A stretch of 33,871 nucleotides of DNA, taken from IMG/VR virus record IMGVR_UViG_2579778856_000005; one strand, 5' to 3'. Shown in pieces: positions 2,634 to 22,076 of this stretch (position 1 is the first letter of the stretch; the number at the start of each line of letters is the position of its first letter). Below the pieces are notes generated by a model. That model saw only the letters and a program-made list of their open reading frames with translations, was not told where the DNA came from and did no database searches. A program made the translations under genes and the position numbers. The stretch comes from a virus. Taxonomy: Duplodnaviria > Heunggongvirae > Uroviricota > Caudoviricetes.

Positions 2634-2652
2634 CTCGGCGCTACCCGTTGGT

Positions 2653-3126: not shown

Positions 3127-3147
3127 AAACGTTGGTTTAGGAGAAGG
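3122..3147 (+). other. Crossover site C in front of cassette 3
   Basis: CATAAAAACG-TT-GGTTTAGGAGAAGG. Confidence 0.6.
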
Positions 3148-3166
3148 CTCGGCGCTACCCGTTGGT

Positions 3167-3598
3167 GTGCCTGTTCCGTGGCCCACCGCCACACCGCCAG
3201 CAGGCTGGTTAAAGTGCGACGGGCGCGCCTTTACAAAAGAACAATATCCTGTTCTGGTCAGAGTCTACCCGACCCTCCGTCTTCCCGATTTGCGCGGTGA
3301 GTTTATCCGTGGATGGGACGGTGGTCGCAAGGTTGATACCGGGCGTGCGCTACTTTCATTTCAGGAAGGGACTATCGTATCCGGTTTTGATGATAATGAT
3401 ACCGGAGATATCAGTTCGCTCGGCTCTACACAATACGGATTTGGTGACGCTTTAACCTCTAATCAACTGGGGGTCTTAAATGGCAAAAAGTGGATATTTG
3501 ATGCATCCTCTAAAGGTGCACAAAGATATGACTGGTGGGCTTATGTATCAGCTCGCCCCCGCAATATCGCATTTAACTATATCGTGAGGGCGGCGTGA
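3167..3598 (+). CDS. Silent tail-fibre C-terminal cassette 3
   Basis: Same conserved block, unique ~70-aa tip, C-terminal RPRNIAFNYIVRAA. Confidence 0.75.
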   Translation: MPVPWPTATPPAGWLKCDGRAFTKEQYPVLVRVYPTLRLPDLRGEFIRGWDGGRKVDTGRALLSFQEGTIVSGFDDNDTGDISSLGSTQYGFGDALTSNQLGVLNGKKWIFDASSKGAQRYDWWAYVSARPRNIAFNYIVRAA

Positions 3599-3604
3599 TA
3601 CCGT

Positions 3605-4219
3605 TCAGCCGGCAAGCGCCAGTGGCGCTTCCGGCCAGCTGATTTCAGGTGCCTTGCTGATATCCAGTGCGTTCAGCTCGTCGATATAATCCAGCACGGC
3701 GTTCAGTTTTGCCGTTTCTTCTGGTTTCAGACTGCGACCAGCACGCAGTTTGAGGTTGATAAGATCGACGGACGCCATCGCCTGTTTCACCCGTTGCTGG
3801 CGTTGCTGTCTGGCAACCTCCAGTTCTGCGGCTCGCTGCCGTTCAGTATCGGTTACCCACGCCTCACCGTTCCAGGTATCCCATGGCGTGGCTGGCTGTT
3901 TTGTGGTGGTGTCCGCCGGGTAATCACCCGGTTGGGTAATCAGAACGGGGTTACCGTTCTCCGTGCTGTATACCGTCTCGCCGCGGTGATCAGGCACATG
4001 CTCCCACCCGTTCAGCGTGGCAGTCCGGCAAACCACGTAACCCGAAATTGCTTCCGGCGGTGCATCGGCGCACGAATGTGCCGGAGTACCCACCCCAAGG
4101 GCGAGATACTCCACAGAGGATGAGGTGTATTCCCGGGTTTCCTCGTCATAGTGATATACAGTGATATCGCCCGCTACAGTGGCGATACCGTTTTCATCCA
4201 GAACTGCAGTGTTACTCAT
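3605..4219 (-). CDS. Tail fibre assembly protein (Tfa family)
   Basis: 204 aa immediately downstream of the fibre gene (TAATG overlap). GEAWV motif and C-terminal LNAVLDYIDELNALDISKAPEISWPEAP, typical of lambda Tfa / Mu U-type chaperones. Confidence 0.85.
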   Translation of the reverse strand: MSNTAVLDENGIATVAGDITVYHYDEETREYTSSSVEYLALGVGTPAHSCADAPPEAISGYVVCRTATLNGWEHVPDHRGETVYSTENGNPVLITQPGDYPADTTTKQPATPWDTWNGEAWVTDTERQRAAELEVARQQRQQRVKQAMASVDLINLKLRAGRSLKPEETAKLNAVLDYIDELNALDISKAPEISWPEAPLALAG

Positions 4220-5550
4220 TAAACTGCCCTCACAATGTAATTAAGTGCAATGCTACGGGGTCTGACAGTGATACCCTTCGCATACCCGCTTCTGATAGAG
4301 GTCAGAATAGTAGCCTGCATACCATTGTCTGACATTGCCACGACAGGATCGCTGAATGTTGTCCCGTCCGGCATTTTAAAGCTGCCCTCACGAAGGTCTG
4401 TAATGGAATCTTCATTGTTGAATCCCATGCCGACTATCCCCGAGGTTCCCGTAGTGTCCTGGTTATAATAATCCAGCATTGCTGTTCTTAACAGCGTTGC
4501 CCCTTGTGCGGACAGCAACTTACGTCCTGTATCAACTTTGCGCCCGTCGTCCCATCCACGGATAAACTCACCGCGTAAATCGGGAAGACGGAGGGTCGGG
4601 TAGACTCTGGCCAGAACAGGATATTGTTCTTTTGTAAAGGCGCGCCCGTCGCACTTTAACCAGCCTGCTGGCGGTGTGGCAGTGGGCCACGGAACAGGTA
4701 CACCAACGGGCAGCGCCGAGCCTTCCCCCAAACCAAGGTAATTGAGGACATCTTTTATACTGCCCTTAGCGATAATAGCGCGACCAATAGCTGTAAGGGT
4801 TGCCAGCTCTGCGCGGTCTGCTCCGGTAAAATAAGGCAACCGATCTGCTGCAGTGGCAAGTCCTGCCAGAGCAGTGAGCGTGGCATCTGCCGGTTGTTTT
4901 CCGTTTGCCAGATCGTATGCAGCCTTGACCGCTTTCGGTGTGGCGGCCAGTATTTCAGACGTGCTGTTGATGGCACTGCTCAATTGTACGGTGCCTTTTG
5001 CCGTCAGCGAGGCAGCAGGCACTCCCGTTATCTGACTCCACGGGTGAGTGTGGCTGACGGGCGCCTTGCCGGCTGCAAGGTCGTATGCAGCCTTGACCGC
5101 CTTCGGCGTGGCAGCCTCAGTTTCTGATTGACTGTCCGTGGCGCTGCTCAGTTGTACGGTGCCTTTTGCCGTCAGTGAAGCCGCAGGCACTCCCGTTATC
5201 TGACTCCACGGGTGAGTGTGGCTGGCAGGCGCCTTGCCGGCTGCCAGGTCGTATGCAGCCTTGACCGCTTTTGGTGTGGCGGCCAGCGTTTCAGAGGTGC
5301 TGTTGGTGGCACTGCTCAGTTGGGTGAACCCCTTAGCTGTCAGTGTCGCGTCCGGGTGGTTACGGGAACGTACGTGTTCAGCCAGTGACTGTGCGGCTTC
5401 CTCCGTTTTCTTCTTCAGCCATTTCGTCCTGTTTGCCAGTTGCCGGGGGGCTCGATTTGATATCCCGTCTGCACCACCCAGAACCGGATCTGATGTCTCC
5501 AGTTGATAGATATTTTCTTCCCACTTTTCTGTTTCATTCAGGTTTCCCAT
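4219..5550 (-). CDS. Tail fibre protein (currently expressed copy)
   Basis: 443 aa from the ATG at 5550 (GGGAG RBS). Shaft repeats (TAKGTVQLSSA..ETEAATPKAVKAAYDLA..SHTHPWSQITGVPA). The C-terminal third carries the same collar-like block as the three cassettes and ends RPRSIALNYIVRAV. Confidence 0.9.
   Translation of the reverse strand: MGNLNETEKWEENIYQLETSDPVLGGADGISNRAPRQLANRTKWLKKKTEEAAQSLAEHVRSRNHPDATLTAKGFTQLSSATNSTSETLAATPKAVKAAYDLAAGKAPASHTHPWSQITGVPAASLTAKGTVQLSSATDSQSETEAATPKAVKAAYDLAAGKAPVSHTHPWSQITGVPAASLTAKGTVQLSSAINSTSEILAATPKAVKAAYDLANGKQPADATLTALAGLATAADRLPYFTGADRAELATLTAIGRAIIAKGSIKDVLNYLGLGEGSALPVGVPVPWPTATPPAGWLKCDGRAFTKEQYPVLARVYPTLRLPDLRGEFIRGWDDGRKVDTGRKLLSAQGATLLRTAMLDYYNQDTTGTSGIVGMGFNNEDSITDLREGSFKMPDGTTFSDPVVAMSDNGMQATILTSIRSGYAKGITVRPRSIALNYIVRAV
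4716..4745 (-). other. Crossover site D inside the expressed fibre gene (inverted relative to A-C)
   Basis: Reverse complement reads AATTACC-TT-GGTTTGGGGGAAGG. The conserved half is identical to site A; the site spans codons N-Y-L-G-L-G-E-G at the constant/variable boundary. Confidence 0.6.
4880..5340. repeat. About 170-bp in-frame tandem repeats (three copies) in the tail-fibre shaft
   Basis: gtcgtatgcagccttgaccgc recurs at ~4920, ~5090 and ~5258; the protein motif TAKGTVQLSSA...AATPKAVKAAYDLAAGK..SHTHPWSQITGVPAASL is repeated. Confidence 0.6.
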
Positions 5551-5552
5551 AA

Positions 5553-6131
5553 TCAACTGCTCCCGTGGTTATAACTGCCATCATGGATGGCGGTATTGTT
5601 ATAGCGAATGGCCACAGACTGATACTCCAGGCTGGCCAGATGGCAGCGGGCCGGTGCAAATGCAGCGAGCGTCTGACGCAGCATCGCGGCCTGATCGTTA
5701 GTAATGGGCTGTTTCAGAATAACGCGATAAACCGCCCAGGCGGCTGCATCTCCATGAACAAACAGTCCGTTATAGCTGCGATTGCCGTCGTAACTGAGAC
5801 GACCTGTGCCTTCAATCAGATCCACTTCACCAAAGCCAAAACGGCGGATAACTTCCCGGATTGACCACGGCGTCCCTTTATACCGGTGCAGTTCGATGGC
5901 TGCTTTTATAAGCATGCGGCGAACATCGTCCGATTCCGCCAGCTCCCAGCCATCGCCAGACAGTGAGAACTGCTCGCCCAGCCATGGCAGCGCGGAACTG
6001 TCGACGATATCGACGAGAAAGACCATCAGTACGCTCAGGTCGATGTTATCCAGCCGCCCTGCCAGTCTTCCCAGCGTCCTGAGACTGATATCACCCTCAA
6101 GCGGTGGCGGGAGTTGTAATGGCTCAGTCAT
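5553..6131 (-). CDS. Baseplate/tail protein, P2 gpI-like (Mu gp48-like)
   Basis: 192 aa from an ATG overlapping the upstream stop; sits between the J-like gene and the tail fibre. Family assignment by position and recall. Confidence 0.7.
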   Translation of the reverse strand: MTEPLQLPPPLEGDISLRTLGRLAGRLDNIDLSVLMVFLVDIVDSSALPWLGEQFSLSGDGWELAESDDVRRMLIKAAIELHRYKGTPWSIREVIRRFGFGEVDLIEGTGRLSYDGNRSYNGLFVHGDAAAWAVYRVILKQPITNDQAAMLRQTLAAFAPARCHLASLEYQSVAIRYNNTAIHDGSYNHGSS

Positions 6132-9367: not shown

Positions 9368-9567
9368 GGGGCAATATCCTCTTCTGTACGGGCTTCTTCA
9401 GCCTCAATCACCGGGATCAGTAACAACAGCCCGGAGGGCAGCACCGGCGTGATGGCCACGTGCGGATTGGCGGCAATAATCCGGGGATAGCCCAGCGGGT
9501 CACCGTAGTACTGCCATGCCAGCGAATCCCAGCGCTCTCCGTCACGGGTAACATGTTCAAGAAACAT
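9355..9567 (-). CDS. Tail protein X (LysM-like)
   Basis: 70 aa from the ATG (MFLEHVTRDGERWDSLAWQYYGDPLGYPRIIAANP), a P2 gpX-type LysM fold as recalled. Confidence 0.75.
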   Translation of the reverse strand: MFLEHVTRDGERWDSLAWQYYGDPLGYPRIIAANPHVAITPVLPSGLLLLIPVIEAEEARTEEDIAPWLR

Positions 9568-10451
9568 CACACACTCCTCGTCAGTATTCTGGCGGCCATT
9601 GCACTTAATCCCGGAGACATGCGGTTGAATGCTGTTCCGACGGCGTTAAGCTGCCCGGAAACGGTATCCAGAGCACCTGCAATATTTCTTTTGTCCACAC
9701 CACTCAGCGCAGACTGTGCCTGCTGTACATACGTGGCTGCTTCGCTGGCTGTTCTGGCCAGACTGATGGCATCGGGCATGGATTCAGAGAGTGCGTTAAA
9801 CGCCGGAACACTTTTCCCCAGAGCCCCGGAGATATTACCCAGTCCGCTCATCAGCCCCGGCACACGGGTCAGTGCGACAACGGGGTTATCCTTCATTTTC
9901 TGTGTCACCCGAACGGCGCTGATAGTGGTCTGGAGTACAGACTGCGCCTGTTTCGCATAGTTGACGCCGTTGCGGATGAACTGCGCCACCCCTGAAGGTG
10001 AAGGTATGGCACCGGAGACCGCCCCGACACCCGGGAGCTTCGTGCGTATTGCCGGTGGTTGCAGAGGATTTTTCGGGTCACCGGTGTATTCCCGGAGAGA
10101 CACGGTGGCACTGACAGCCAGCACGTTGCCGGTACTGTCAGTCTGCTCGCTGGTTGCAGTCACATCGGTGATCACGAACCAGCCGCGATAGTCACCGTTG
10201 CCGAAGACCAGCGCCAGTGCCTGATGGGCTTTCATGGCTGTTCGCAGTCTCGCCAGCTCCACATCGGGTACACAATAATGCTGATGGAAAACCAGAGTTA
10301 TCTGGATTTCGTCCAGCCTGTCGCCGACGAACTGCAGACCAGGCTTACCCCCGATGCGGGCATGCTCCGCATAATCGACGCCGAACGTGGCCTCGAAGCC
10401 GTCCCAGTAGGTAATCAGCTCAAACTCAATATCACCCAGTACGGCAAACAT
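9567..10451 (-). CDS. Tail protein with P2 gpU-like N-terminal domain and a long Ala/Ser-rich C-terminal extension
   Basis: 294 aa; the N-terminal ~125 aa (GKPGLQFVG..ITL..ALALVFGNGDYRGWFVITDVTATSEQ) resembles the gpU tail-terminator family. Intact only in this copy. Confidence 0.7.
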   Translation of the reverse strand: MFAVLGDIEFELITYWDGFEATFGVDYAEHARIGGKPGLQFVGDRLDEIQITLVFHQHYCVPDVELARLRTAMKAHQALALVFGNGDYRGWFVITDVTATSEQTDSTGNVLAVSATVSLREYTGDPKNPLQPPAIRTKLPGVGAVSGAIPSPSGVAQFIRNGVNYAKQAQSVLQTTISAVRVTQKMKDNPVVALTRVPGLMSGLGNISGALGKSVPAFNALSESMPDAISLARTASEAATYVQQAQSALSGVDKRNIAGALDTVSGQLNAVGTAFNRMSPGLSAMAARILTRSV

Positions 10452-13402
10452 CAGCGGTACTCCTTACGTTGTTTCTGAGCCAGCAGACGCTCCAGCATTT
10501 TTTCCAGCTCATGCAGACTCATATTCAGGGCACCAGTCAGTCCTGCAGGCGCTGTGGTTTCCCTGCCATTGAGGAAAAACTGAGGATTAAAGCTGACCTG
10601 GATACCACCAGACGTTCCACCGCCGGTTGCAGCTGCACCACGGCCTGAATATCCGGCAGCCAGGATTTCAGGCGAGGGGATACGGGGAACATCCGGTGTC
10701 ATCTCATTTGCCAGACGTTGCCCTGGTAAAATCGATGCCCGGGTGGAGAGCGGAATAGCGGGCATGGAAGACAAACTATTGATTACGGCTCCGATCGCAT
10801 TTTTAGCAGACGACATAAACCCATTGATATCGGGCAACGGCATACTGAAGCGAACACCTGAAGTGTTATCCCGTATTTCTGGCCCCTGAATGCTCACGGG
10901 CATTCTGGGGAGCAGTTCACTGGCCATTCGCTGCCCGGCCAGAGCTGCAAGCGGAGTGGTCCGCTGCAGGCCAATGGCGGCCCCCTGCGCGATATTGTCA
11001 CCAAAGCCCATAAACACGCGGCTCGGCGAATGAATGCCCAGCTTTTCGCTGAACCAGCCACTGATGCTGTCACCCATTCCGGTTACACTGGATTTGAGCG
11101 ACTCCCATTTGTTTTTGATACCGTTAATCAGACCGTCGACAAGATGGCCACCGAAGTCGGTGAACTTTGCCGGCAGATCAACACCAAGATATTTCAGCGC
11201 AGCTGCAAAGGCTTTATAGAGCAGACCTGCCGGCGACCAGTTAATCAGCAGCTTACCAGTTCCCGCGATACCGCCGTTAAAGGCTTCCTGAATGTCAGCC
11301 CAGCACTGTTTAAACCAGCTACTGATGCTGTCACCCATTCCGGTTACACTGGATTTGAGCGACCCCCATTTGTTTTTGATACCGTTAATCAGACCGTCGA
11401 TAAGATGGCCACCGAAGTCGGTGAACTTTGCCGGCAGAGCAACGCCGAAATATTTCAGCGCAGCCGCAAAGGCTTTATAGAGCAGGCCTGCCGGCGACCA
11501 GTTAATCAGCAACTTACCAATTCCCACAATGCCGCCGTTAAAGGCTTCCTGAATGTCAGCCCAGCGCTGTTTAAACCAACCACTGACAGCCCCCCAGTTG
11601 CGGTAGATAAGGTAAGCTGCTGTCGCGACAGCGGTGATAACGAGACCGATGGGATTCATCATCAGCGCTCGCCCAATCCAGAGAACGGCACGTGCAGCGC
11701 TCATAAAACCGCGAACGAGGCTGCCCGCCAGAACTTTGCTGAGTTTCAGTCCTCCGCTGGTCAGTCGGCTGAATCCAGTGACAAGCCAGCGTAATTTGCC
11801 ACCTTCTCCGAGTGCGGTAGTCAGTCGATGCCAGTTGGTCCGGAGTAAAACAGTAGTTTTCCAGACGTTCACAAAGGGGGAAATAAGGAGATTCAGCCCC
11901 AGTTTGAGACCAATAGTCGCTATCTTAATCGCAAGGAGCGCACTGATGAGCTTAAAAGCCCCACTGACAAATTGCGGGTGAGTCGCTACCCAGTGTTTTG
12001 TCCCCTGAATGAGTGGGAGCAGTTCCTGAGTCAGAGAAATAAAAGATGGAGCTAATTGATCGCCCAGCGTAATTGCCAGATCGCGACTGCTGACCATAAG
12101 TGTTTTAGTGGCTTCAAGGGGAGATTTCAGCCGCTGATCATAAGCACTGGCAAGCAAATCGTTATCCGCAGCCCTGAGAGCACCGGCACGGATCTCTCGA
12201 TATCTGTCCATGTTGGCCAGCATCGGGCGGATAAATGCCATGACCTGCATATCCGCGAACATATCGCCCAGACCAAAGTTTTTCGCCAGAGCCTGAAGTG
12301 CCTCATCTCTTGCCGTATCATTCTTTATTTTCATGGCTGATTTGAAGCCGGCCAGCGCTTCGGGGCTTTTGGCATTGAGGTAACGTTCTATAACACTCAA
12401 CATCCCTTCAATCGGAGAGATCCCCGCAGCTTTATAACTCGCAATAGATCCCTGCAAATCAATACCCAGATCAGCAAACTGTTTCTGAGTATCGCGGGCA
12501 AAAATTTTGGTAAGAAAGTTTTTAAAATTATTGGCTGCTTCGTCGGTGGAACCTGCACCGATTTTTGCTATCTGGAGACTGGCCCCGATTTCAGCAACAG
12601 CCTCTTTTCCACTGGCAATACCCGCCATCATTGGGGCCAGGGACTGCATCCACTTGACCTGATCCGGGATTTCAAATGACCCCTGGTCACCGGCATAAGC
12701 CATAATATTCTGAACGGCACCAAAATCTCTGGCCGCGCCTTTCAGGGAGTTTTGCCAGACTGCGGCCACTTTTGCCCAGTCCTGAGCAGACGTGCGTGTT
12801 GCCGTTGCCGCGCGGGCAATATCCGGCATCAGAAAACCGATATCTGACACATTATCAATATTGTCGCTGATGAGTGAACCCACCGCCTCCTGCAGCTCAT
12901 CCTGATACTGATTGTATTTAAGCGCCCAGCCTTTTATCTGTCCGGCAAGTGCATCCCGCGTTTTATTGTCATATTTTGCGGTGATCGACATATCAATCAT
13001 TTTGTCCTGAAAAGACATGGACTGCTGAACGGCAGGGGAAACCGTATGATAAACAGTCTGTGCCATGCCATACGCTTCAATCCCCTGACCATACAGCGCC
13101 ATGCGGTTAGCTTTCAGCGCATCACTGGTAGCGGATGCCGCTGACAGACGGCGCTGCTGGCGCTCAATTTGCTCCATGGTGCGGCTTACCCGCAGCAGCT
13201 CGCTGTTGAGATGCTGCATCCGGGAAGAACCCAGTTGACCATAACGTTCTGTTGCACGGGTTAAAGCGTTCTGACGTTCCTGCAGGCGGCGTGAGGTATC
13301 GCTCAGGGAATCAAGCGCACGGCGGGTACCGCTCATTGCAGAACGGAATGTGCTGCCAATCATCCCGCCGATAACAACGCCGACTGAAAACTGTCCCGAC
13401 AT
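10451..13402 (-). CDS. Tail tape measure protein (copy 1)
   Basis: 983 aa, N-terminal coiled coil, internal 86-aa tandem repeat, GGAGG RBS. Confidence 0.9.
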   Translation of the reverse strand: MSGQFSVGVVIGGMIGSTFRSAMSGTRRALDSLSDTSRRLQERQNALTRATERYGQLGSSRMQHLNSELLRVSRTMEQIERQQRRLSAASATSDALKANRMALYGQGIEAYGMAQTVYHTVSPAVQQSMSFQDKMIDMSITAKYDNKTRDALAGQIKGWALKYNQYQDELQEAVGSLISDNIDNVSDIGFLMPDIARAATATRTSAQDWAKVAAVWQNSLKGAARDFGAVQNIMAYAGDQGSFEIPDQVKWMQSLAPMMAGIASGKEAVAEIGASLQIAKIGAGSTDEAANNFKNFLTKIFARDTQKQFADLGIDLQGSIASYKAAGISPIEGMLSVIERYLNAKSPEALAGFKSAMKIKNDTARDEALQALAKNFGLGDMFADMQVMAFIRPMLANMDRYREIRAGALRAADNDLLASAYDQRLKSPLEATKTLMVSSRDLAITLGDQLAPSFISLTQELLPLIQGTKHWVATHPQFVSGAFKLISALLAIKIATIGLKLGLNLLISPFVNVWKTTVLLRTNWHRLTTALGEGGKLRWLVTGFSRLTSGGLKLSKVLAGSLVRGFMSAARAVLWIGRALMMNPIGLVITAVATAAYLIYRNWGAVSGWFKQRWADIQEAFNGGIVGIGKLLINWSPAGLLYKAFAAALKYFGVALPAKFTDFGGHLIDGLINGIKNKWGSLKSSVTGMGDSISSWFKQCWADIQEAFNGGIAGTGKLLINWSPAGLLYKAFAAALKYLGVDLPAKFTDFGGHLVDGLINGIKNKWESLKSSVTGMGDSISGWFSEKLGIHSPSRVFMGFGDNIAQGAAIGLQRTTPLAALAGQRMASELLPRMPVSIQGPEIRDNTSGVRFSMPLPDINGFMSSAKNAIGAVINSLSSMPAIPLSTRASILPGQRLANEMTPDVPRIPSPEILAAGYSGRGAAATGGGTSGGIQVSFNPQFFLNGRETTAPAGLTGALNMSLHELEKMLERLLAQKQRKEYR
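11040..11585. repeat. 258-bp in-frame tandem repeat inside the tape measure gene (two full copies plus a partial third)
   Basis: ccagc(c/t)actgatgctgtcacccattccggttacactggatttgagcga recurs at 11055 and 11313; the protein repeat is WFKQ(R/C)WADIQEAFNGG...SVTGMGDSIS. Confidence 0.8.
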
Positions 13403-13477
13403 AGTGGTTAACCTCCGGGGAAGGTGAAAAGACGTGAGGGGATAACGCAGAACAGCCGCTACTGGCGGCTGTCTGTA

Positions 13478-13895
13478 CTATGATTTGTCGCCGTACTCGC
13501 TTTTGATTTGCTCTTCAGCCTGCTCCAGCCACATCTCCAGATCGTCAGTATCGAGGGCATCAATCTCCCCCGGCTGAAACCGGAACCATCTCGCCAGCAG
13601 CCCCTGCGCCTGCGTCAGCGCCCTGGTTGCTCTCACCCATCCCCGTGATGAGCTGAAATCGTTTCTGTAACTGCAGGTAATCAGCCAGATCCATATTGTC
13701 GAGATCTTCCGGGAGAAGACCAGTACTGCGGGCAATCAGCGGTTCGTCCCAGTCTGCCGGGTTTTTGCTGATTTTGCGCACCTGCTTCAGGTCTTTTACC
13801 GTCAGGCGTTTCAGTTCAACCAGCTCAATTCTGGTGCCTGCAGCAGTGGTGAAGGGATAAGACAATTTAAAAGTATCGGATGGGGTCTGTGACAT
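13478..13895 (-). CDS. Tail assembly chaperone, putative frameshifted long form (GT / E+E' analogue)
   Basis: A second ORF (13478-13735) overlaps the 3' end of the chaperone ORF in the +1 (equivalently -2) frame and extends it by ~28 aa of plausible protein sequence (..IDALDTDDLEMWLEQAEEQIKSEYGDKS). Confidence 0.5.
13560..13895 (-). CDS. Tail assembly chaperone (lambda G / P2 E analogue), short form
   Basis: 111 aa, acidic, between tube and tape measure; AGGAG RBS. Confidence 0.8.
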   Translation of the reverse strand: MSQTPSDTFKLSYPFTTAAGTRIELVELKRLTVKDLKQVRKISKNPADWDEPLIARSTGLLPEDLDNMDLADYLQLQKRFQLITGMGESNQGADAGAGAAGEMVPVSAGGD

Positions 13896-13949
13896 GATTG
13901 TGCTCCTGTGTAAGTTCAGGGCAGTATGTCGGGAGAAGCGCGTGACGGA

Positions 13950-13990
13950 TATTAAAGGAGATTAAGAAGAAGGGGCCGGAGCCCCTGTGA
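13950..13990 (-). terminator. Putative intrinsic terminator/attenuator between tube region and chaperone
   Basis: Perfect palindrome AGGGGC-CGGA-GCCCCT (13971-13986) followed on the minus-strand transcript by a T-rich run (ttcttcttaatctccttt). Confidence 0.5.
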
Positions 13991-13992
13991 TG

Positions 13993-14274
13993 TCAGCAAG
14001 TGCGAAACCCCTTGCAGTTACGCAGGAAAGCGATGAGAAGCGTCTTTCCCTCAGATTTGCCGATGCCGGAGAACCAGTGGTCGGGAGGCTCCCATGCTTC
14101 AATCAAATCCGCCAGTTTGCGGGCCTTTGAACGTGTGCAGTCAATCGGGTCATTGGTTTTACGGGTATTAAAAAGGGTTTCCACCCCCGGAATATCAAGG
14201 AGGGTAAACCACGTACCATTTGACATGCCCAGTGCCGCACATCGTCCTCCTTTATCCGTCAGTTCAACACTCAC
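13993..14274 (-). CDS. Hypothetical small protein between tube and chaperone
   Basis: 93-codon open frame in a 380-bp gap; start codon ambiguous (GTG at 14274, or an internal ATG with a distant AAGGAGGA). Confidence 0.35.
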   Translation of the reverse strand: MSVELTDKGGRCAALGMSNGTWFTLLDIPGVETLFNTRKTNDPIDCTRSKARKLADLIEAWEPPDHWFSGIGKSEGKTLLIAFLRNCKGFRTC

Positions 14275-14276
14275 CG

Positions 14277-14798
14277 TCAGCCCCCGATATTGATACGGTA
14301 GTCAGTCAGTTGATCAACACCGCCGACCCGGAAGATGTTGGCCAGATAGTCCAGTTGCAGCAGCTCTTCACCATCCAGTACCTGTCTGATATACGTGCAG
14401 GTGAAGCTACTGGAGAACTCGGCGTTCTCGTGCTGTTTGAACGTCCCCAGCGGGTTCTTCTTGAACATAATCGTCAGGAAGGTGACCAGCGGGATTTCGT
14501 CAATCAGCCCCTGCGAGCTGTAGCGCTGGACGCTGGAACGACACTGCAGTGCCAGCGACCTGTACGGGTTCGCGGCAGACAGCATCGCATCGCGGTAAAA
14601 GCTGTTCCATTTGATTTCGCCTTCCAGCTTGTCAAAACCAGCCGGGAGTTCCACCTTACCCACCATCCCCAGCGCCTTGTGTTCCTGCATAATCATGGAG
14701 ACATCGGGGAGTTTAACTTCCTCAGCCCGTCCCAGCAGGTTAGTACCATCCAGATAGATGTTGGCATTCGTGATGCGGTTTATCTCAATCTTTGACAT
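14277..14798 (-). CDS. Tail tube protein (copy 1)
   Basis: 173 aa, ATGA overlap with the sheath stop; contractile-tail tube family by size and position. Confidence 0.9.
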   Translation of the reverse strand: MSKIEINRITNANIYLDGTNLLGRAEEVKLPDVSMIMQEHKALGMVGKVELPAGFDKLEGEIKWNSFYRDAMLSAANPYRSLALQCRSSVQRYSSQGLIDEIPLVTFLTIMFKKNPLGTFKQHENAEFSSSFTCTYIRQVLDGEELLQLDYLANIFRVGGVDQLTDYRINIGG

Positions 14799-16089
14799 CA
14801 GTTGCCCCCTTTCAGGGTTAACAGGTATTCCGAGGTGATCTCAGTCTCAAACGTCAGTCGCTCCAGCGGCGGTGGTGGCGTATATTTGTAGCTCAGCAAC
14901 AGGTGCCCGGCGGCCAGCTCCGTCTCCGGATTGCGGGCCGGATCAAACCAGCAACGGAAGCCCAGTACCGCACCATCACCAGTCATTTTGCGACCGTAGG
15001 CGTTGACCGACTCCGTCAGTGCATCAATCAGCGCCTGAGTAATCGGCATGTCGATGTACTGCTGGCTGAAATAACGAATGGACTCGTTGATCACATCACC
15101 GGTGCGGCGAACGTTCTCAAAGTTACGCATATGGGTGACCGTTGGCCATGCTGCCGTCCGGTTACCCCACAGACGAAGGCCGCTGCCGTAACTGCTGAAT
15201 ACCGTGGTGATCCCCTGTTCGTTAAGCAGGTTCACCTCACTCTGCGGGTCATCAATCATCGCGGACAGCTGGCGCTCCACGCCGGTGATCCCCAGAATCT
15301 CCTGATTGGAGGATGACCACCAGTAGCCCTTGTCCAGATCGACTCTGGCACGCAGACCTGCTGCACGCTGGCTGAGCGGCTCCAGACGCTCTGTGTTTGT
15401 CACCGGGTCATATACCTTCACATGCGGATAGCACAGACGGACGCGGTCGGAGCTGGTATTGAAGTTGATGGTGCCTTCCGGGCCACGACCTGCCAGAGCC
15501 TGTGCAAAGGTGGTACCGACAGGCGCATCAATGTAGGTTACCGCGCCCAGCTTCTCTGCCATGGCGATAAGCTCAACTGCGACACTCTTCTGGGTGCAGA
15601 ACACCGGCGCAATCAGAATTTTGGCGAAATAGCCGTACAGGTTGAAGCTGTCGTTAAGCAGCTTCATGCCGGTTCGGTTTCCGGCGCTGTTCACCCCGCC
15701 GATGATGTCCGCCGCAGTCACCTTCGACGGGTCCGCGTACTCATAGCTCACCTTCACGCTGCCACCGGCCTCAATAGCCTTGCCCAGGTTCGTGAGCACA
15801 CCCGCCTGCGCATCAACACGGTAGTCCGTGTTCGCCGTGTGGGTGGTGCTGCCTTCACTGTTTTTCACCACCACATTAGCGACAACCGGATGCGCCAGTC
15901 TGGCCTGCCCTGTCGATTTGTCAAAGGTAACCACCTCATCCTCGATCGCCGTTTTATGTTTCGCCGGGTCGAGGACGTTAATGACCAGAACGGTGCCTGC
16001 ACCATGGTCATAAATCGCATCCAGCGCCTGCGGAATGGTAAAGCCGGTGAACTGGCTGCCAAATGCCGCTGCGTCTTTCTCAGACAGGC
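14798..16089 (-). pseudogene. Tail sheath protein, 5'-truncated fragment (lacks ~45 N-terminal codons)
   Basis: Matches the intact sheath at 20649-22076 up to the duplication junction at 16089, then reads into out-of-frame U-derived sequence. Confidence 0.8.
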
Positions 16090-16302
16090 TGTTCGCAGTC
16101 TCGCCAGCTCCACATCGGGTACACAATAATGCTGATGGAAAACCAGAGTTATCTGGATTTCGTCCAGCCTGTCGCCGACGAACTGCAGACCAGGCTTACC
16201 CCCGATGCGGGCATGCTCCGCATAATCGACGCCGAACGTGGCCTCGAAGCCGTCCCAGTAGGTAATCAGCTCAAACTCAATATCACCCAGTACGGCAAAC
16301 AT
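16090..16302 (-). pseudogene. gpU-like tail protein, 3'-truncated fragment (first 71 codons)
   Basis: Identical to the N-terminus of the 9567-10451 protein (MFAVLGDIEFELITYWDGFEATFGVDYAEHARIGGKPGLQFVG...) then fused out of frame to sheath antisense sequence. Confidence 0.8.
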
Positions 16303-19253
16303 CAGCGGTACTCCTTACGTTGTTTCTGAGCCAGCAGACGCTCCAGCATTTTTTCCAGCTCATGCAGACTCATATTCAGGGCACCAGTCAGTCCTGCAGG
16401 CGCTGTGGTTTCCCTGCCATTGAGGAAAAACTGAGGATTAAAGCTGACCTGGATACCACCAGACGTTCCACCGCCGGTTGCAGCTGCACCACGGCCTGAA
16501 TATCCGGCAGCCAGGATTTCAGGCGAGGGGATACGGGGAACATCCGGTGTCATCTCATTTGCCAGACGTTGCCCTGGTAAAATCGATGCCCGGGTGGAGA
16601 GCGGAATAACGGGCATGGAAGACAAACTATTGATTACGGCTCCGATCGCATTTTTAGCAGACGACATAAACCCATTGATATCGGGCAACGGCATACTGAA
16701 GCGAACACCTGAAGTGTTATCCCGTATTTCTGGCCCCTGAATGCTCACGGGCATTCTGGGGAGCAGTTCACTGGCCATTCGCTGCCCGGCCAGAGCTGCA
16801 AGCGGAGTGGTCCGCTGCAGGCCAATGGCGGCCCCCTGCGCGATATTGTCACCAAAGCCCATAAACACGCGGCTCGGCGAATGAATGCCCAGCTTTTCGC
16901 TGAACCAGCCACTGATGCTGTCGCCCATTCCGGTTACACTGGATTTGAGCGACTCCCATTTGTTTTTGATACCGTTAATCAGACCATCGACAAGATGGCC
17001 ACCGAAGTCGGTAAACTTTGCCGGCAGATCAACACCAAGATATTTCAGCGCAGCTGCAAAGGCTTTATAGAGCAGACCTGCCGGCGACCAGTTAATCAGC
17101 AGCTTACCAGTTCCCGCGATACCGCCGTTAAAGGCTTCCTGAATGTCAGCCCAGCATTGTTTAAACCAGCTACTGATGCTGTCACCCATTCCGGTTACAC
17201 TGGATTTGAGCGACCCCCATTTGTTTTTGATACCGTTAATCAAACCGTCGATAAGATGGCCACCGAAGTCGGTGAACTTTGCCGGCAGAGTAACGCCGAA
17301 ATATTTCAGCGCAGCCGCAAAGGCTTTATAGAGCAGGCCTGCCGGCGACCAGTTAATCAGCAGCTTACCAGTTCCCGCGATACCGCCGTTAAAGGCTTCC
17401 TGAATGTCAGCCCAGCGCTGTTTAAACCAGCCACTGACTGCCCCCCAGTTGCGGTAGATAAGGTAAGCTGCTGCCGCGACAGCGGTGATAACGAGACCGA
17501 TGGGATTCATCATCAGCGCTCGCCCAATCCAGAGAACGGCACGTGCAGCGCTCATAAAACCGCGAACGAGGCTGCCCGCCAGAACTTTGCTGAGTTTCAG
17601 TCCTCCGCTGGTCAGTCGGCTGAATCCAGTGACAAGCCAGCGTAATTTGCCACCTTCTCCGAGTGCGGTAGTCAGTCGATGCCAGTTGGTCCGGAGTAAA
17701 ACAGCAGTTTTCCAGACGTTCACAAAGGGGGAAATAAGGAGATTCAGCCCCAGTTTGAGACCAACAGTCGCTATCTTAATCGCAAGGAGCGCACTGATGA
17801 GCTTAAAAGCCCCACTGACAAATTGCGGGTGAGTCGCCACCCAGTGTTTTGTCCCCTGAATGAGTGGGAGCAAGTCCTGAGTCAGAGAAATAAAAGATGG
17901 AGCTAATTGATCGCCCAGCGTAATTGCCAGATCGCGACTGCTGACCATAAGTGTTTTAGTGGCTTCAAGGGGAGATTTCAGCCGCTGATCATAAGCACTG
18001 GCAAGCAAATCGTTATCCGCAGCCCTGAGAGCACCGGCACGGATCTCTCGATATCTGTCCATGTTGGCCAGCATCGGGCGGATAAATGCCATGACCTGCA
18101 TATCCGCGAACATATCGCCCAGACCAAAGTTTTTCGCCAGAGCCTGAAGTGCCTCATCTCTTGCCGTATCATTCTTTATTTTCATGGCTGATTTGAAGCC
18201 GGCCAGCGCTTCGGGGCTTTTGGCATTGAGGTAACGTTCTATAACACTCAACATCCCTTCAATCGGAGAGATCCCCGCAGCTTTATAACTCGCAATAGAT
18301 CCCTGCAAATCAATACCCAGATCAGCAAACTGTTTCTGAGTATCGCGGGCAAAAATTTTGGTAAGAAAGTTTTTAAAATTATTGGCTGCTTCGTCGGTGG
18401 AACCTGCACCGATTTTTGCTATCTGGAGACTGGCCCCGATTTCAGCAACAGCCTCTTTTCCACTGGCAAGACCCGCCATCATTGGGGCCAGGGACTGCAT
18501 CCACTTGACCTGATCCGGGATTTCAAATGACCCCTGGTCACCGGCATAAGCCATAATATTCTGAACGGCACCAAAATCTCTGGCCGCACCTTTCAGGGAG
18601 TTTTGCCAGACTGCGGCCACTTTTGCCCAGTCCTGAGCAGACGTGCGTGTTGCCGTTGCCGCGCGGGCAATATCCGGCATCAGAAAACCGATATCTGACA
18701 CATTATCAATATTGTCGCTGATGAGTGAACCCATCGCCTCCTGCAGCTCATCCTGATACTGATTGTATTTAAGCGCCCAGCCTTTTATCTGTCCGGCAAG
18801 TGCATCCCGCGTTTTATTGTCATATTTTGCGGTGATCGACATATCAATCATTTTGTCCTGAAAAGACATGGACTGCTGAACGGCAGGGGAAACCGTATGA
18901 TAAACAGTCTGTGCCATGCCATACGCTTCAATCCCCTGACCATACAGCGCCATGCGGTTAGCTTTCAGCGCATCACTGGTAGCGGATGCCGCTGACAGAC
19001 GGCGCTGCTGGCGCTCAATTTGCTCCATGGTGCGGCTTACCCGCAGCAGCTCGCTGTTGAGATGCTGCATCCGGGAAGAACCCAGTTGACCATAACGTTC
19101 TGTTGCACGGGTTAAAGCGTTCTGACGTTCCTGCAGGCGGCGTGAGGTATCGCTCAGGGAATCAAGCGCACGGCGGGTACCGCTCATTGCAGAACGGAAT
19201 GTGCTGCCAATCATCCCGCCGATAACAACGCCGACTGAAAACTGTCCCGACAT
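16302..19253 (-). CDS. Tail tape measure protein (copy 2)
   Basis: 983 aa; about 9 amino-acid differences from copy 1. Confidence 0.9.
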   Translation of the reverse strand: MSGQFSVGVVIGGMIGSTFRSAMSGTRRALDSLSDTSRRLQERQNALTRATERYGQLGSSRMQHLNSELLRVSRTMEQIERQQRRLSAASATSDALKANRMALYGQGIEAYGMAQTVYHTVSPAVQQSMSFQDKMIDMSITAKYDNKTRDALAGQIKGWALKYNQYQDELQEAMGSLISDNIDNVSDIGFLMPDIARAATATRTSAQDWAKVAAVWQNSLKGAARDFGAVQNIMAYAGDQGSFEIPDQVKWMQSLAPMMAGLASGKEAVAEIGASLQIAKIGAGSTDEAANNFKNFLTKIFARDTQKQFADLGIDLQGSIASYKAAGISPIEGMLSVIERYLNAKSPEALAGFKSAMKIKNDTARDEALQALAKNFGLGDMFADMQVMAFIRPMLANMDRYREIRAGALRAADNDLLASAYDQRLKSPLEATKTLMVSSRDLAITLGDQLAPSFISLTQDLLPLIQGTKHWVATHPQFVSGAFKLISALLAIKIATVGLKLGLNLLISPFVNVWKTAVLLRTNWHRLTTALGEGGKLRWLVTGFSRLTSGGLKLSKVLAGSLVRGFMSAARAVLWIGRALMMNPIGLVITAVAAAAYLIYRNWGAVSGWFKQRWADIQEAFNGGIAGTGKLLINWSPAGLLYKAFAAALKYFGVTLPAKFTDFGGHLIDGLINGIKNKWGSLKSSVTGMGDSISSWFKQCWADIQEAFNGGIAGTGKLLINWSPAGLLYKAFAAALKYLGVDLPAKFTDFGGHLVDGLINGIKNKWESLKSSVTGMGDSISGWFSEKLGIHSPSRVFMGFGDNIAQGAAIGLQRTTPLAALAGQRMASELLPRMPVSIQGPEIRDNTSGVRFSMPLPDINGFMSSAKNAIGAVINSLSSMPVIPLSTRASILPGQRLANEMTPDVPRIPSPEILAAGYSGRGAAATGGGTSGGIQVSFNPQFFLNGRETTAPAGLTGALNMSLHELEKMLERLLAQKQRKEYR
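16891..17436. repeat. 258-bp tandem repeat inside tape measure gene, copy 2
   Basis: Same repeat as 11040-11585, offset by 5,851 bp. Confidence 0.8.
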
Positions 19254-19410
19254 AGTGGTTAACCTCCGGGGAAGGTGAAAAGACGTGAGGGGATAACGCA
19301 GAACAGCCGCTACTGGCGGCTGTCTGTACTATGATTTGTCGCCGTACTCGCTTTTGATTTGCTCTTCAGCCTGCTCCAGCCACATCTCCAGATCGTCAGT
19401 ATCGAGGGCA

Positions 19411-19746
19411 TCAATCTCCCCCGGCTGAAACCGGAACCATCTCGCCAGCAGCCCCTGCGCCTGCGTCAGCGCCCTGGTTGCTCTCACCCATCCCCGTGAT
19501 GAGCTGAAATCGTTTCTGTAACTGCAGGTAATCAGCCAGATCCATATTGTCGAGATCCTCCGGGAGAAGACCAGTACTGCGGGCAATCAGCGGTTCGTCC
19601 CAGTCTGCCGGGTTTTTGCTGATTTTGCGCACCTGCTTCAGGTCTTTTACCGTCAGGCGTTTCAGTTCAACCAGCTCAATTCTGGTGCCTGCAGCAGTGG
19701 TGAAGGGATAAGACAATTTAAAAGTATCGGATGGGGTCTGTGACAT
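19411..19746 (-). CDS. Tail assembly chaperone (copy 2)
   Basis: Identical to 13560-13895; overlapping +1-frame ORF at 19329-19586. Confidence 0.8.
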   Translation of the reverse strand: MSQTPSDTFKLSYPFTTAAGTRIELVELKRLTVKDLKQVRKISKNPADWDEPLIARSTGLLPEDLDNMDLADYLQLQKRFQLITGMGESNQGADAGAGAAGEMVPVSAGGD

Positions 19747-19843
19747 GATTGTGCTCCTGTGTAAGTTCAGGGCAGTATGTCGGGAGAAGCGCGTGACGGA
19801 TATTAAAGGAGATTAAGAAGAAGGGGCCGGAGCCCCTGTGATG

Positions 19844-20125
19844 TCAGCAAGTGCGAAACCCCTTGCAGTTACGCAGGAAAGCGATGAGAAGCGTCTTTCC
19901 CTCAGATTTGCCGATGCCGGAGAACCAGTGGTCGGGAGGCTCCCATGCTTCAATCAAATCCGCCAGTTTGCGGGCCTTTGAACGTGTGCAGTCAATCGGG
20001 TCATTGGTTTTACGGGTATTAAAAAGGGTTTCCACCCCCGGAATATCAAGGAGGGTAAACCACGTACCATTTGACATGCCCAGTGCCGCACATCGTCCTC
20101 CTTTATCCGTCAGTTCAACACTCAC
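19844..20125 (-). CDS. Hypothetical small protein (copy 2)
   Basis: Duplicate of 13993-14274. Confidence 0.35.
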   Translation of the reverse strand: MSVELTDKGGRCAALGMSNGTWFTLLDIPGVETLFNTRKTNDPIDCTRSKARKLADLIEAWEPPDHWFSGIGKSEGKTLLIAFLRNCKGFRTC

Positions 20126-20127
20126 CG

Positions 20128-20649
20128 TCAGCCCCCGATATTGATACGGTAGTCAGTCAGTTGATCAACACCGCCGACCCGGAAGATGTTGGCCAGATAG
20201 TCCAGTTGCAGCAGCTCTTCACCATCCAGTACCTGTCTGATATACGTGCAGGTGAAGCTACTGGAGAACTCGGCGTTCTCGTGCTGTTTGAACGTCCCCA
20301 GCGGGTTCTTCTTGAACATAATCGTCAGGAAGGTGACCAGCGGGATTTCGTCAATCAGCCCCTGCGAGCTGTAGCGCTGGACGCTGGAACGACACTGCAG
20401 TGCCAGCGACCTGTACGGGTTCGCGGCAGACAGCATCGCATCGCGGTAAAAGCTGTTCCATTTGATTTCGCCTTCCAGTTTGTCAAAACCAGCCGGGAGT
20501 TCCACCTTACCCACCATCCCCAGCGCCTTGTGTTCCTGCATAATCATGGAGACATCGGGGAGTTTGACTTCCTCAGCCCGTCCCAGCAGGTTAGTACCAT
20601 CCAGATAGATGTTGGCATTCGTGATGCGGTTTATCTCAATCTTTGACAT
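20128..20649 (-). CDS. Tail tube protein (copy 2)
   Basis: Protein identical to copy 1. Confidence 0.9.
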   Translation of the reverse strand: MSKIEINRITNANIYLDGTNLLGRAEEVKLPDVSMIMQEHKALGMVGKVELPAGFDKLEGEIKWNSFYRDAMLSAANPYRSLALQCRSSVQRYSSQGLIDEIPLVTFLTIMFKKNPLGTFKQHENAEFSSSFTCTYIRQVLDGEELLQLDYLANIFRVGGVDQLTDYRINIGG

Positions 20650-22076
20650 CAGTTGCCCCCTTTCAGGGTTAACAGGTATTCCGAGGTGATCTCAGTCTCA
20701 AACGTCAGTCGCTCCAGCGGCGGTGGTGGCGTATATTTGTAGCTCAGCAACAGGTGCCCGGCGGCCAGCTCCGTCTCCGGATTGCGGGCCGGATCAAACC
20801 AGCAACGGAAGCCCAGTACCGCACCATCACCAGTCATTTTGCGACCGTAGGCGTTGACCGACTCCGTCAGTGCATCAATCAGCGCCTGAGTAATCGGCAT
20901 GTCGATGTACTGCTGGCTGAAATAACGAATGGACTCGTTGATCACATCACCGGTGCGGCGAACGTTCTCAAAGTTACGCATATGGGTGACCGTTGGCCAT
21001 GCTGCCGTCCGGTTACCCCACAGACGAAGGCCGCTGCCGTAACTGCTGAATACCGTGGTGATCCCCTGTTCGTTAAGCAGGTTCACCTCACTCTGCGGGT
21101 CATCAATCATCGCGGACAGCTGGCGCTCCACGCCGGTGATCCCCAGAATCTCCTGATTGGAGGATGACCACCAGTAGCCCTTGTCCAGATCGACTCTGGC
21201 ACGCAGACCTGCTGCACGCTGGCTGAGCGGCTCCAGACGCTCTGTGTTTGTCACCGGGTCATATACCTTCACATGCGGATAGCACAGACGGACGCGGTCG
21301 GAGCTGGTATTGAAGTTGATGGTGCCTTCCGGGCCACGACCTGCCAGAGCCTGTGCAAAGGTGGTACCGACAGGCGCATCAATGTAGGTTACCGCGCCCA
21401 GCTTCTCTGCCATGGCGATAAGCTCAACTGCGACACTCTTCTGGGTGCAGAACACCGGCGCAATCAGAATTTTGGCGAAATAGCCGTACAGGTTGAAGCT
21501 GTCGTTAAGCAGCTTCATGCCGGTTCGGTTTCCGGCGCTGTTCCCCCCGCCGATGATGTCCGCCGCAGTCACCTTCGACGGGTCCGCGTACTCATAGCTC
21601 ACCTTCACGCTGCCACCGGCCTCAATAGCCTTGCCCAGGTTCGTGAGCACACCCGCCTGCGCATCAACACGGTAGTCCGTGTTCGCCGTGTGGGTGGTGC
21701 TGCCTTCACTGTTTTTCACCACCACATTAGCGACAACCGGATGCGCCAGTCTGGCCTGCCCTGTCGATTTGTCAAAGGTAACCACCTCATCCTCGATCGC
21801 CGTTTTATGTTTCGCCGGGTCGAGGACGTTAATGACCAGAACGGTGCCTGCACCATGGTCATAAATCGCATCCAGCGCCTGCGGAATGGTAAAGCCGGTG
21901 AACTGGCTGCCAAATGCCGCTGCGTCTTTCTCAGACAGGCACTGTACCAGCGTATTGACATCCCCCATCGGGGCGGTACCAATCAGGCCAATAACGGCAG
22001 ATTTCACCGTTTTAACCGGGCGGGCACCGTTTTCCACCTCAATGGTTTCGGGACCATGCAGATAGTTAGCTGCCAT
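20649..22076 (-). CDS. Tail sheath protein (intact copy)
   Basis: 475 aa, MAANYLHGPETIEVENGARPVKTVKSAVIGLIGTAP..; contractile sheath family. Confidence 0.9.
   Translation of the reverse strand: MAANYLHGPETIEVENGARPVKTVKSAVIGLIGTAPMGDVNTLVQCLSEKDAAAFGSQFTGFTIPQALDAIYDHGAGTVLVINVLDPAKHKTAIEDEVVTFDKSTGQARLAHPVVANVVVKNSEGSTTHTANTDYRVDAQAGVLTNLGKAIEAGGSVKVSYEYADPSKVTAADIIGGGNSAGNRTGMKLLNDSFNLYGYFAKILIAPVFCTQKSVAVELIAMAEKLGAVTYIDAPVGTTFAQALAGRGPEGTINFNTSSDRVRLCYPHVKVYDPVTNTERLEPLSQRAAGLRARVDLDKGYWWSSSNQEILGITGVERQLSAMIDDPQSEVNLLNEQGITTVFSSYGSGLRLWGNRTAAWPTVTHMRNFENVRRTGDVINESIRYFSQQYIDMPITQALIDALTESVNAYGRKMTGDGAVLGFRCWFDPARNPETELAAGHLLLSYKYTPPPPLERLTFETEITSEYLLTLKGGN

Follow-up and report, generated by a model that had tools for sequence, protein, structure and literature searches.

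An in-frame 87-codon tandem repeat in the tape measure gene of a BcepMu-like Escherichia coli prophage varies in unit number among relatives

The prophage tail module and the repeat in its tape measure gene

The window, i.e., the whole stretch of 33,871 nucleotides analyzed here, comes from E. coli BIDMC 63 and includes part of a BcepMu-like transposable prophage that adjoins aroA; our literature search found no published description of this strain. An ST131 prophage (L006) that is 99.4-99.9% identical to the window encodes a P2-type tail and Mu-type head proteins as well as a DDE transposase, Mor and Gam; the early region is situated beyond the window and was read from this near-identical prophage. 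The isolated relative PhiKM is assigned to Bcepmuvirus.

The tail genes are arranged in the order sheath, tube, DUF7739, gpE-type chaperone, tape measure protein (TMP), gpU, X and D (Table 1). A preliminary description of this DNA had named the repeat-bearing gene a tape measure gene, and this was borne out by matches of the protein to PF10145 (E=2e-20, 74 bits at a cut-off of 33.2) and to PHROG 28 "tail length tape measure protein" (E=2.7e-135), as well as by the location of the gene between the gpE-type chaperone and gpU. The gene product is a P2 gpT-type TMP.

Table 1. Coordinates of the features in the window, counted from its first nucleotide
Feature	Position	Strand	Remarks
gpU-type tail protein	9567..10451	-	directly downstream of tape measure gene; PF06995, E=7e-39
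Contig 1 end, apparent "copy 1" of 5,851-bp tandem duplication	10236..16085	.	overlaps contig 2
Tape measure ORF, allele 1 (KDF83351.1)	10451..13402	-	983 aa; PF10145, PHROG 28; exact protein recorded from E. coli BIDMC 63
Second length-variable tape measure segment	10724..10936	-	71 aa, aa 823-893; missing in more distant alleles
Repeat unit B, allele 1	11057..11317	-	aa 696-782 of 983-aa ORF; codon-register alignment
Repeat unit A, allele 1	11318..11578	-	aa 609-695 of 983-aa ORF; 87 codons, starts WFKQRWADIQ
gpE-type tail assembly chaperone	13560..13895	-	directly upstream of tape measure gene; PF10109, E=5.5e-21; duplicate at 19411-19746
Truncated sheath ORF	14798-16126		same gene as 20649..22076, ended by contig end
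Scaffold join	16086..16086	.	"A" in window, "N" in GenBank scaffold KK736311.1 (GCA_000692435.1)
Contig 2 start, "copy 2"	16087..21937	.	same gpU'-TMP-chaperone-tube-sheath segment
Second tape measure ORF, allele 2, ST131 type (KDF83345.1)	16302..19253	-	983 aa; on scaffold's other contig
Repeat unit B, allele 2	16908..17168	-	codon-register alignment
Repeat unit A, allele 2	17169..17429	-	codon-register alignment
Conversion-like patch	17363..17382 (= 11512-11531)	-	nt 48-67 of unit A; five clustered SNPs, allele 2 unit A has unit B sequence
Intact tail sheath gene	20649..22076	-	475 aa

An in-frame tandem repeat of 258 bp (86 aa), with two full copies and a partial third, had been described within this gene. 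Tandem Repeats Finder reported arrays at 11052-11586 and 16903-17437 (period 261, 2.0 copies, 93% matches, score 958), and a repeat search recovered four in-register copies in the window, confirming the periodicity. The period is, however, 261 bp or 87 aa, and the supposed partial copy amounts to just ~8-13 nt of flanking similarity (G-W-F). The unit consensus given previously was correct, as were the VGIG/AGTG and FGVALP/FGVTLP differences between the two copies of the gene, while the second occurrence noted at 16891-17436, although it exists in the window, sits in a 5,851-bp stretch duplicated by a scaffold join of contigs (see below). Units A and B share 246/261 identical nucleotides in copy 1 and 245/261 in copy 2 (94%), a similarity far above chance, with exact runs in common of up to 43-79 nt. 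No published description of this repeat was found in the literature search.

In the protein, two hydrophobic, transmembrane-like segments (aa 478-508 and 580-599) immediately precede the units, which are situated within the protein body at a distance of 200 aa from the C-terminus. For aa 590-800, a single-sequence AlphaFold model was nearly all helix, at a confidence too low for use (pLDDT 45), and a PDB sequence search with the TMP gave no match to a solved structure. Autocorrelation of aromatic residues along the protein had its sole peak at lag 87; lag 18 was weak (0.12), lag 11 was outside the strongest lags, and an 11- or 18-residue aromatic periodicity was thus absent. The motif formed by the C-terminal half of the unit recurs weakly in several tape measure families.

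A probable scaffold join and two tape measure alleles

The window matches GCA_000692435.1 except at position 16086, which is N in the deposited scaffold, and exactly at this single-N join the sequence goes back by 5,851 bp. None of 5,426 complete E. coli genomes contained the resulting junction, nor did the genome, viral and metagenome collections, and an ORF look-up found no other record of the chimeric 145-aa ORF that spans it. Since the junction base is N, we infer a join of two contigs; a single N might, in principle, also be an ambiguous base inside one contig. A real tandem duplication with GGC microhomology was considered for the 5,851-bp repeat and rejected because of the N at the junction in GCA_000692435.1. 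Hence, the tape measure gene was almost certainly not duplicated in the genome; rather, two contig ends overlapping by 5.85 kb were joined end to end. The case resembles other false duplications that stem from unmerged overlapping ends of contigs in short-read scaffolds, in having a single-N join where the sequence goes back and "copies" that are allelic variants. This "duplicated tail module" of BIDMC 63 is a data-quality trap, in which the N of the join has become an A in the window.

Copies 1 and 2 differ at 27 sites (99.5% identity over 5.85 kb). Over 5,851 nt, copy 1 has 5 differences from the yeiB prophage of strain S7, and copy 2 has 5 from the aroA prophage of ST131; both alleles are present in strain S7, in two separate prophages. 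The preliminary description had compared the two as duplicated copies, a comparison that is not supported in this form since each represents a different circulating allele and the junction is a one-N scaffold join; for the same reason, an origin of the differences after duplication was ruled out. The second tape measure gene is almost certainly no paralog, and the two alleles most likely derive from two related prophages in BIDMC 63, as in S7. Twenty of the 27 differences fall in the tract 11072-12023, and since this tract reaches ~450 bp past the repeat, their clustering mainly reflects an allelic recombination tract. Phase-switch errors were considered for four sites that form a reciprocal mosaic (10758, 12619, 12737, and 14715); two of the four are naturally polymorphic in the ST131-type allele.

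Unit number and exchange between units among related prophages

The comparison of repeat number among related prophages that had been proposed earlier revealed that the number does differ, with intact alleles of 1, 2, 3, and 4 units, corresponding to 896, 983, 1070, and 1157 aa, in closely related E. coli prophages. One unit is found in the complete genome of strain DLI.5a (intact 896-aa ORF), two units in most genomes, three in strains K56-43-un and SCU-101 (intact 1070-aa ORFs) and four in WP_113383342.1. Among the best 120 database homologs, 27 were 896 aa, 43 were 983 aa and 17 were 1070 aa long, and in a sample of 60 genomes, spread by rank over the 636 matching complete genomes, 2 units were counted in 42 rows, the 3-unit pattern in 11 and a single unit in 1. 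Tube protein WP_162832341.1 is annotated alike in the 1-, 2-, and 3-unit loci, and so is sheath protein WP_000729834.1 except in K56-43-un (WP_000729833.1); the unit-number alleles thus sit on a mostly unchanged sheath and tube background. The prophage of DLI.5a may be defective, since its chaperone gene is annotated with an internal stop.

The units of different alleles are in part hybrids. All four gametes were present for 21/28 pairs of variable sites, the middle units of 3-unit alleles mostly have a B-like N-terminal end and an A-like C-terminal end, and the single unit of DLI.5a is of A-type in nt 1-93 and of B-type in nt 114-261, synonymous markers included. Such units mark repeated unequal crossing-over together with patchy conversion between units. 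A simple unequal crossover is not enough for every allele, since the A-A-B 3-unit alleles require either an exchange in ~14 nt of sequence free of unit-diagnostic sites or subsequent conversion. The more distant alleles of 825 and 821 aa, used as outgroups (L007 and L008), hold one unit, indicating that one unit is ancestral. Alleles of 86% overall identity (P0103 and similar) were of no use as outgroups, since their unit does not differ from that of the in-group and their divergence is located elsewhere.

Gene conversion between units had also been suggested from the differences between the two copies. This is upheld for the five clustered SNPs in unit A of allele 2 only, where unit B would have been the donor, with a tract length of 20 to 79 nt; the patch looks like the sole clear conversion signature between units among the differences.

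If the 5.85-kb duplication and its two tape measure genes were real in BIDMC 63, having arisen by illegitimate recombination of two related prophage genomes, the repeat differences would reflect exchange between paralogous copies. The 27 differing sites, which are no trivial expansion of an identical repeat, the retention of one intact copy of each tail gene and a 3-bp GGC match at the join would fit this, but the N exactly at the junction base, the absence of the junction in all complete genomes and collections searched, the chimeric ORF without other record and the closeness of each copy to a different natural single-copy allele make it improbable. In a recA-plus host, a direct repeat of 5.85 kb with 99.5% identity would also be unstable. 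ALLPATHS-LG scaffolds are, moreover, known to contain contigs that overlap, with negative gap sizes (PMC5368935), the use of this assembler for BIDMC 63 being an assumption. The 1-, 3-, and 4-unit alleles could themselves be errors in which the 261-bp repeat was collapsed or expanded, leaving no real polymorphism, and the repeat does trouble both assembly and annotation: phage PhiKM has a sequencing gap at the repeat, and PGAP splits intact 3-unit genes into two "partial" pseudogenes, a further data-quality trap. Yet all three classes were seen in complete genomes, each class occurs in many independent records (e.g., clusters on 17 and 25 contigs), the units are not plain copies but have SNP combinations specific to their class, synonymous markers included, and the ORFs remain intact, so that we consider such errors a very improbable source of these alleles.

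Tail length and comparison with known systems

We propose that an 87-codon block was recently duplicated in tandem and in frame just past the two hydrophobic segments, and that unequal homologous recombination together with short conversion tracts between units, suggested by the exact runs that the units have in common, would have generated the in-frame 1-, 2-, 3-, and 4-unit alleles. The TMP acts as a ruler for tube and sheath polymerization, and each unit is therefore predicted to alter tail length. The change would be ~13 nm per unit, or ~three tube/sheath rings in a tail ~150 nm long, an estimate that assumes ~1.5 Å per residue (helix) for a region modeled only at the low confidence given above, and it should require no alteration of other tail genes. 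The effect of unit number on tail length is expected by analogy with other phages; dependence of unit-number change on RecA and viability of each allele are presumed as well. Taken jointly, the recent block duplication, the 1-4-unit alleles made by recombination, the predicted ruler effect and the artefactual second gene form an explanation that we regard as likely.

Alternatively, unit number may vary while tail length remains constant; the block would then belong to a part of the protein that does not set length and could tune, for example, membrane insertion, formation of the DNA conduit, or chaperone binding. The position of the units directly after the two transmembrane-like segments is compatible with such a role, as is the weakly common motif in their C-terminal half, and in TP901-1 the length is independent of ~127 TMP residues (PMC5099701). 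In the same phage, however, deletions in the repeat region and in the hydrophobic region both shortened the tail proportionally (PMC5099701), the units considered here are in the protein body, well away from the C-terminus, and in distant homologs the number of module copies rises with protein length (Spearman 0.41). A constant tail length is thus unlikely, and we favor the prediction that tail length follows unit number. It is a more far-reaching and rather doubtful suggestion that this contractile-tailed prophage, which is widespread in pandemic E. coli ST131, uses unit number to switch its tail length quickly and reversibly by recombination; selection could maintain such a switch if different tail lengths suited hosts differing in capsule or O-antigen thickness. 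If true, the repeat would be a natural "contingency locus" for virion geometry and would offer a ready allelic series to test the ruler model in contractile tails.

The prophage tail agrees with the P2 gpT/BcepMu-type tail module (FI sheath, FII tube, E/E+E', T, U, X, and D) in gene order and Pfam families. Deletions and duplications in the TMP of TP901-1 shift tail length proportionally, with 118 nm for ~810 length-determining residues (PMC5099701), and for lambda gpH and T4 gp29, in-frame length changes are described as tolerated with a proportional tail length in work cited as references 12-13 of PMC13585406. The TMP studied here shares protein role and gene position with these proteins. 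In contrast to their engineered length changes, the 1-4-unit series is natural and belongs to a contractile P2-type prophage. The siphophage TMPs with variable numbers of 11-aa W/F units (Belcaid et al., 2011; PMC3271669) are similar in that in-frame tandem units were gained and lost among relatives with a history readable from the sequence, but the prophage unit has 87 aa and lacks the 11-residue aromatic periodicity, the units are young (94% nucleotide identity), and the phage is contractile-tailed. Since length-variable TMP repeats and the ruler principle are textbook knowledge, variation in repeat number being an ordinary means of varying tail length, our finding adds an example rather than a concept. 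Tandem repeats are reported to be usually lacking in TMPs of contractile-tailed phages (PMC13585406). With its natural 1-4 units on a near-constant sheath and tube background, the series would provide a convenient system for tail-length scaling in a contractile-tailed E. coli prophage.

The tape measure repeat and its genomic setting

Tandem Repeats Finder placed an array inside each of the two 983-aa tape measure protein (TMP) ORFs (11052-11586 and 16903-17437; each with period 261, 2.0 copies, 93% matches and score 958), bearing out the tandem in-frame repeat that the preliminary description had read in this gene, and a repeat search found four in-register copies in the window at spacings of 261, 5590 and 261 nt. 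The unit had been taken as 258 bp, or 86 codons, but is 261 bp, or 87 codons, and the supposed partial third copy is merely G-W-F directly after unit B, the second tandem unit; apart from these points the consensus and the quoted differences between copies were correct. Unit A, the first unit, matches unit B at 246/261 nt within copy 1; the corresponding figure for copy 2 is 245/261 nt. Shortly upstream of the repeat the protein has two hydrophobic segments, aa 478-508 and aa 580-599; an AlphaFold model of aa 590-800 was almost entirely helical, at a low-confidence pLDDT of 45, and was not relied on.

Features of the window discussed in the text
Feature	Position	Strand	Remark
Serine invertase ORF	1540-2241	minus	PF00239 and HTH_7
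Three promoterless tail-collar-domain cassettes	2184-2612, 2653-3126, 3167-3598	opposite to invertase	
TMP ORF, allele 1, 983 aa	10451-13402	minus	contains array 11052-11586
Unit B, copy 1	11057-11317	minus	aa 696-782, codon register
Unit A, copy 1	11318-11578	minus	aa 609-695, codon register
TMP ORF, allele 2, 983 aa	16302-19253	minus	contains array 16903-17437

The TMP ORF matches PF10145 (74 bits) and PHROG 28 "tail length tape measure protein" (E=2.7e-135), and is surrounded by a P2-type tail module (sheath, tube, DUF7739, gpE-type chaperone, TMP, gpU, X, D, baseplate). The window starts in aroA, and the host element is a BcepMu-like transposable prophage found commonly in ST131. PhiKM, an isolated relative, is assigned to Bcepmuvirus, and a near-identical ST131 prophage copy carries the DDE transposase, Gam and Mor. 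Among 5,426 complete E. coli genomes, 636 gave a match to the TMP gene. The gpE-type chaperone ORF (13560-13895) overlaps an ORF in another frame (13478-13735; region 13478-13895, duplicate 19329-19746), consistent with a putative programmed frameshift of the P2 E / E+E' kind.

Other repeats were seen among the tail-fibre genes. The tail-collar-domain cassettes follow the invertase gene and have in common a 268-nt repeat (at 2126, 2565 and 3079), so that region 1540-3598 looks like a putative Gin/Cin/Min-type invertible system with several tail-fibre tip cassettes; the ST131 reference prophage has one cassette fewer. The tail-fibre gene 4219-5556 (minus strand) contains a 168-nt tandem repeat at 4898-5401 (2.5 copies, 84% matches), corresponding to Pfam Phage_fiber_2 repeats, and this in-frame repeat could allow length variation.

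Two alleles probably joined in one scaffold

Both TMPs are on record in E. coli BIDMC 63 (KDF83351.1 and KDF83345.1; GCA_000692435.1, scaffold KK736311.1), within a direct repeat of 5,851 bp (10236-16086 versus 16087-21937) showing 27 differences, 23 of which are transitions. A real tandem duplication with a GGC microhomology junction was rejected, since an N is present at the junction and the junction is unmatched elsewhere, neither in the 5,426 complete E. coli genomes nor in genome, viral and metagenome collections. Window 451-23402 equals KK736311.1 at every position but 16086, the junction base, which is "A" in the window versus "N" in GenBank. A one-N join at a 5.85-kb jump-back is expected when a scaffolder abuts unmerged overlapping contig ends, and the duplication of the gpU'-TMP-chaperone-tube-sheath segment is almost certainly an assembly artefact from two such ends. 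Negative gaps with overlapping contigs have been described for ALLPATHS-LG (PMC5368935); that this was the assembler of BIDMC 63 is our assumption. Two ORFs owe their existence to the scaffold join: 14798-16126, which is a truncated sheath, and 15865-16302, in which a piece of gpU runs into out-of-frame sequence.

Judged by their closest relatives, the two "copies" are two alleles. Copy 1 shows 5 differences in 5,851 nt from a yeiB-inserted prophage of E. coli strain S7 and 6 from a metagenome scaffold in which the segment is single-copy, and copy 2 shows 5 from the ST131 aroA prophage and 3 from isolate OZ039045. Strain S7 harbors both alleles in two separate prophages, and the likeliest situation in BIDMC 63 is the same. 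Hence, the comparison of two duplicated TMP genes in the preliminary description rests on an artefact, given the N at the join and the distinct natural alleles. At four sites (10758, 12619, 12737 and 14715) the two "copies" have their parental states swapped relative to the remaining 22 allele-specific sites. Of these four, 12619 and 12737 are natural polymorphisms in ST131-type alleles, and 10758 and 14715 could be natural recombination or short-read phasing errors. After 10 kb of near-identity, mismatches to the ST131 reference prophage also concentrate at 26567-28800, where the genes for head morphogenesis, portal and terminase lie; this reflects another mosaic tract or else the threading of mixed alleles by the assembly.

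The differences between copies had also been taken to hint at gene conversion between units, and the 522 nt of the units indeed hold 11 of the 27, where 2.4 would be expected (binomial P ~1e-5). However, of the 22 differences between copy 1 and the ST131 allele, 19 fall at 11072-12023 and all within 11072-14628, and since the tract 11072-12023, which holds 20 of the 27 inter-copy differences, runs ~450 bp past the repeat, the clustering stems mainly from an allelic recombination tract. What stands of the conversion claim is one patch with a conversion signature between units, namely five differences in 20 nt (unit A nt 48-67; window 11512-11531 and 17363-17382) at which unit A of allele 2 equals unit B. 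The nearest A-type markers on either side, nt 13 and nt 93, bound the tract to 20-79 nt. The remaining six in-unit differences are private changes and uninformative on conversion.

Unit number and exchange between units

Comparing repeat number among related prophages, as had been suggested, revealed alleles with 1, 2, 3 or 4 units. Of the 636 matching complete genomes, 60 were sampled across the rank order; 42 showed the two-unit span (2,952 bp), 11 a three-unit pattern and one the one-unit span (2,691 bp), while six were more divergent or disrupted. Direct checks found an intact 896-aa ORF without a tandem array in strain DLI.5a, and 3.0 copies in intact 1070-aa ORFs in both K56-43-un and SCU-101. 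The best 120 homologues in a large protein collection included length classes of 896 aa (n=27), 983 aa (n=43) and 1070 aa (n=17), and a four-unit member (WP_113383342.1, 1157 aa) belongs to the same 90% cluster. One-, two- and three-unit loci have an identically annotated tube protein (WP_162832341.1) and the same sheath protein (WP_000729834.1), except K56-43-un (WP_000729833.1). PGAP splits each of these two intact 1070-aa three-unit ORFs, of K56-43-un and SCU-101 (L003 2400-5612, L004 2139-5351), into two partial pseudogenes, an annotation artefact caused by the extra unit. In PhiKM, the sole closely related isolated phage (PQ738613.1; 3001-5866), a sequencing gap falls exactly on the repeat.

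Two alleles lying further away, L007 (825 aa, 94% aa identity) and L008 (821 aa, with 64%), have a single unit, which indicates a single-unit ancestral state. The unit has eight variable sites (positions 5, 18, 20, 44, 47, 60, 72 and 87), and across units from all alleles 21 of the 28 site pairs show all four combinations. First units typically read R..FA.GS, and C..LDVEG is typical of last units. In three-unit alleles the middle unit is mostly C..FA.GS, B-like at the start and A-like at the end, as would be expected if unit B and unit A had crossed over unequally. Single-unit alleles are mostly of the reciprocal type, with an A-like start, a B-like end and at least three distinct switch points. 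The DLI.5a unit is A-type over nt 1-93 and B-type over nt 114-261, synonymous markers included; as a hybrid with derived states of both units it is a contraction product, and these states rule it out as the ancestral single unit. Some three-unit alleles are arranged A-A-B with a purely A-type middle unit, which would need exchange over a very short interval or later conversion. The longest exactly identical runs shared by the units measure 43 nt (allele 1) and 79 nt (allele 2), lengths that are sufficient for RecA-dependent exchange.

The 87-aa module is widespread, with 604 representative proteins matching it at E<=1e-3. Of the 150 best representatives, the ones with >=700 aa mostly have one near-full copy, about one fifth two, and a few three or four; spacings vary from 61 to 118 aa, which points to independent duplications in other lineages. 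A related TMP (P0006, 1084 aa, on a 22.8-kb NCBI contig) has another in-frame duplication, 101 aa long, which takes in the second hydrophobic segment together with the beginning of unit A; it falls in the same region with different breakpoints. The TMP has a second length polymorphism, an older one, in a 71-aa segment (window 10724-10936, minus strand, TMP aa 823-893) that the window shares with its close relatives and that L007 and L008 lack; the motifs bordering it, GQRMASELLPRMP and GQRLANEMTPDVP, resemble each other.

Tail length and known tape measure repeats

In phage TP901-1 tail length tracks TMP length, with 118 nm for ~810 length-determining residues, and deletions in the repeat region and in the hydrophobic region both shorten the tail (PMC5099701); the same behavior is referenced for lambda and T4 in PMC13585406. 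Each unit of 87 aa, at ~0.146-0.15 nm per residue, would correspond to ~13 nm of tail. With a ring rise of ~4 nm, this would amount to roughly three tube/sheath rings per unit. The proposal that the repeat may provide tail-length variation is supported at the level of sequence polymorphism.

The TMP repeat is a real, ordinary feature. No paper on this TMP repeat was found in our literature search, and variable-number TMP units as such are known already (Belcaid et al., 2011, PMC3271669; PMC5099701). In contrast to those, the unit described here is 87 aa long without the 11-residue aromatic periodicity, is evolutionarily young, and is located in the TMP of a contractile tail, a group in which tandem repeats are reportedly absent as a rule (PMC13585406).
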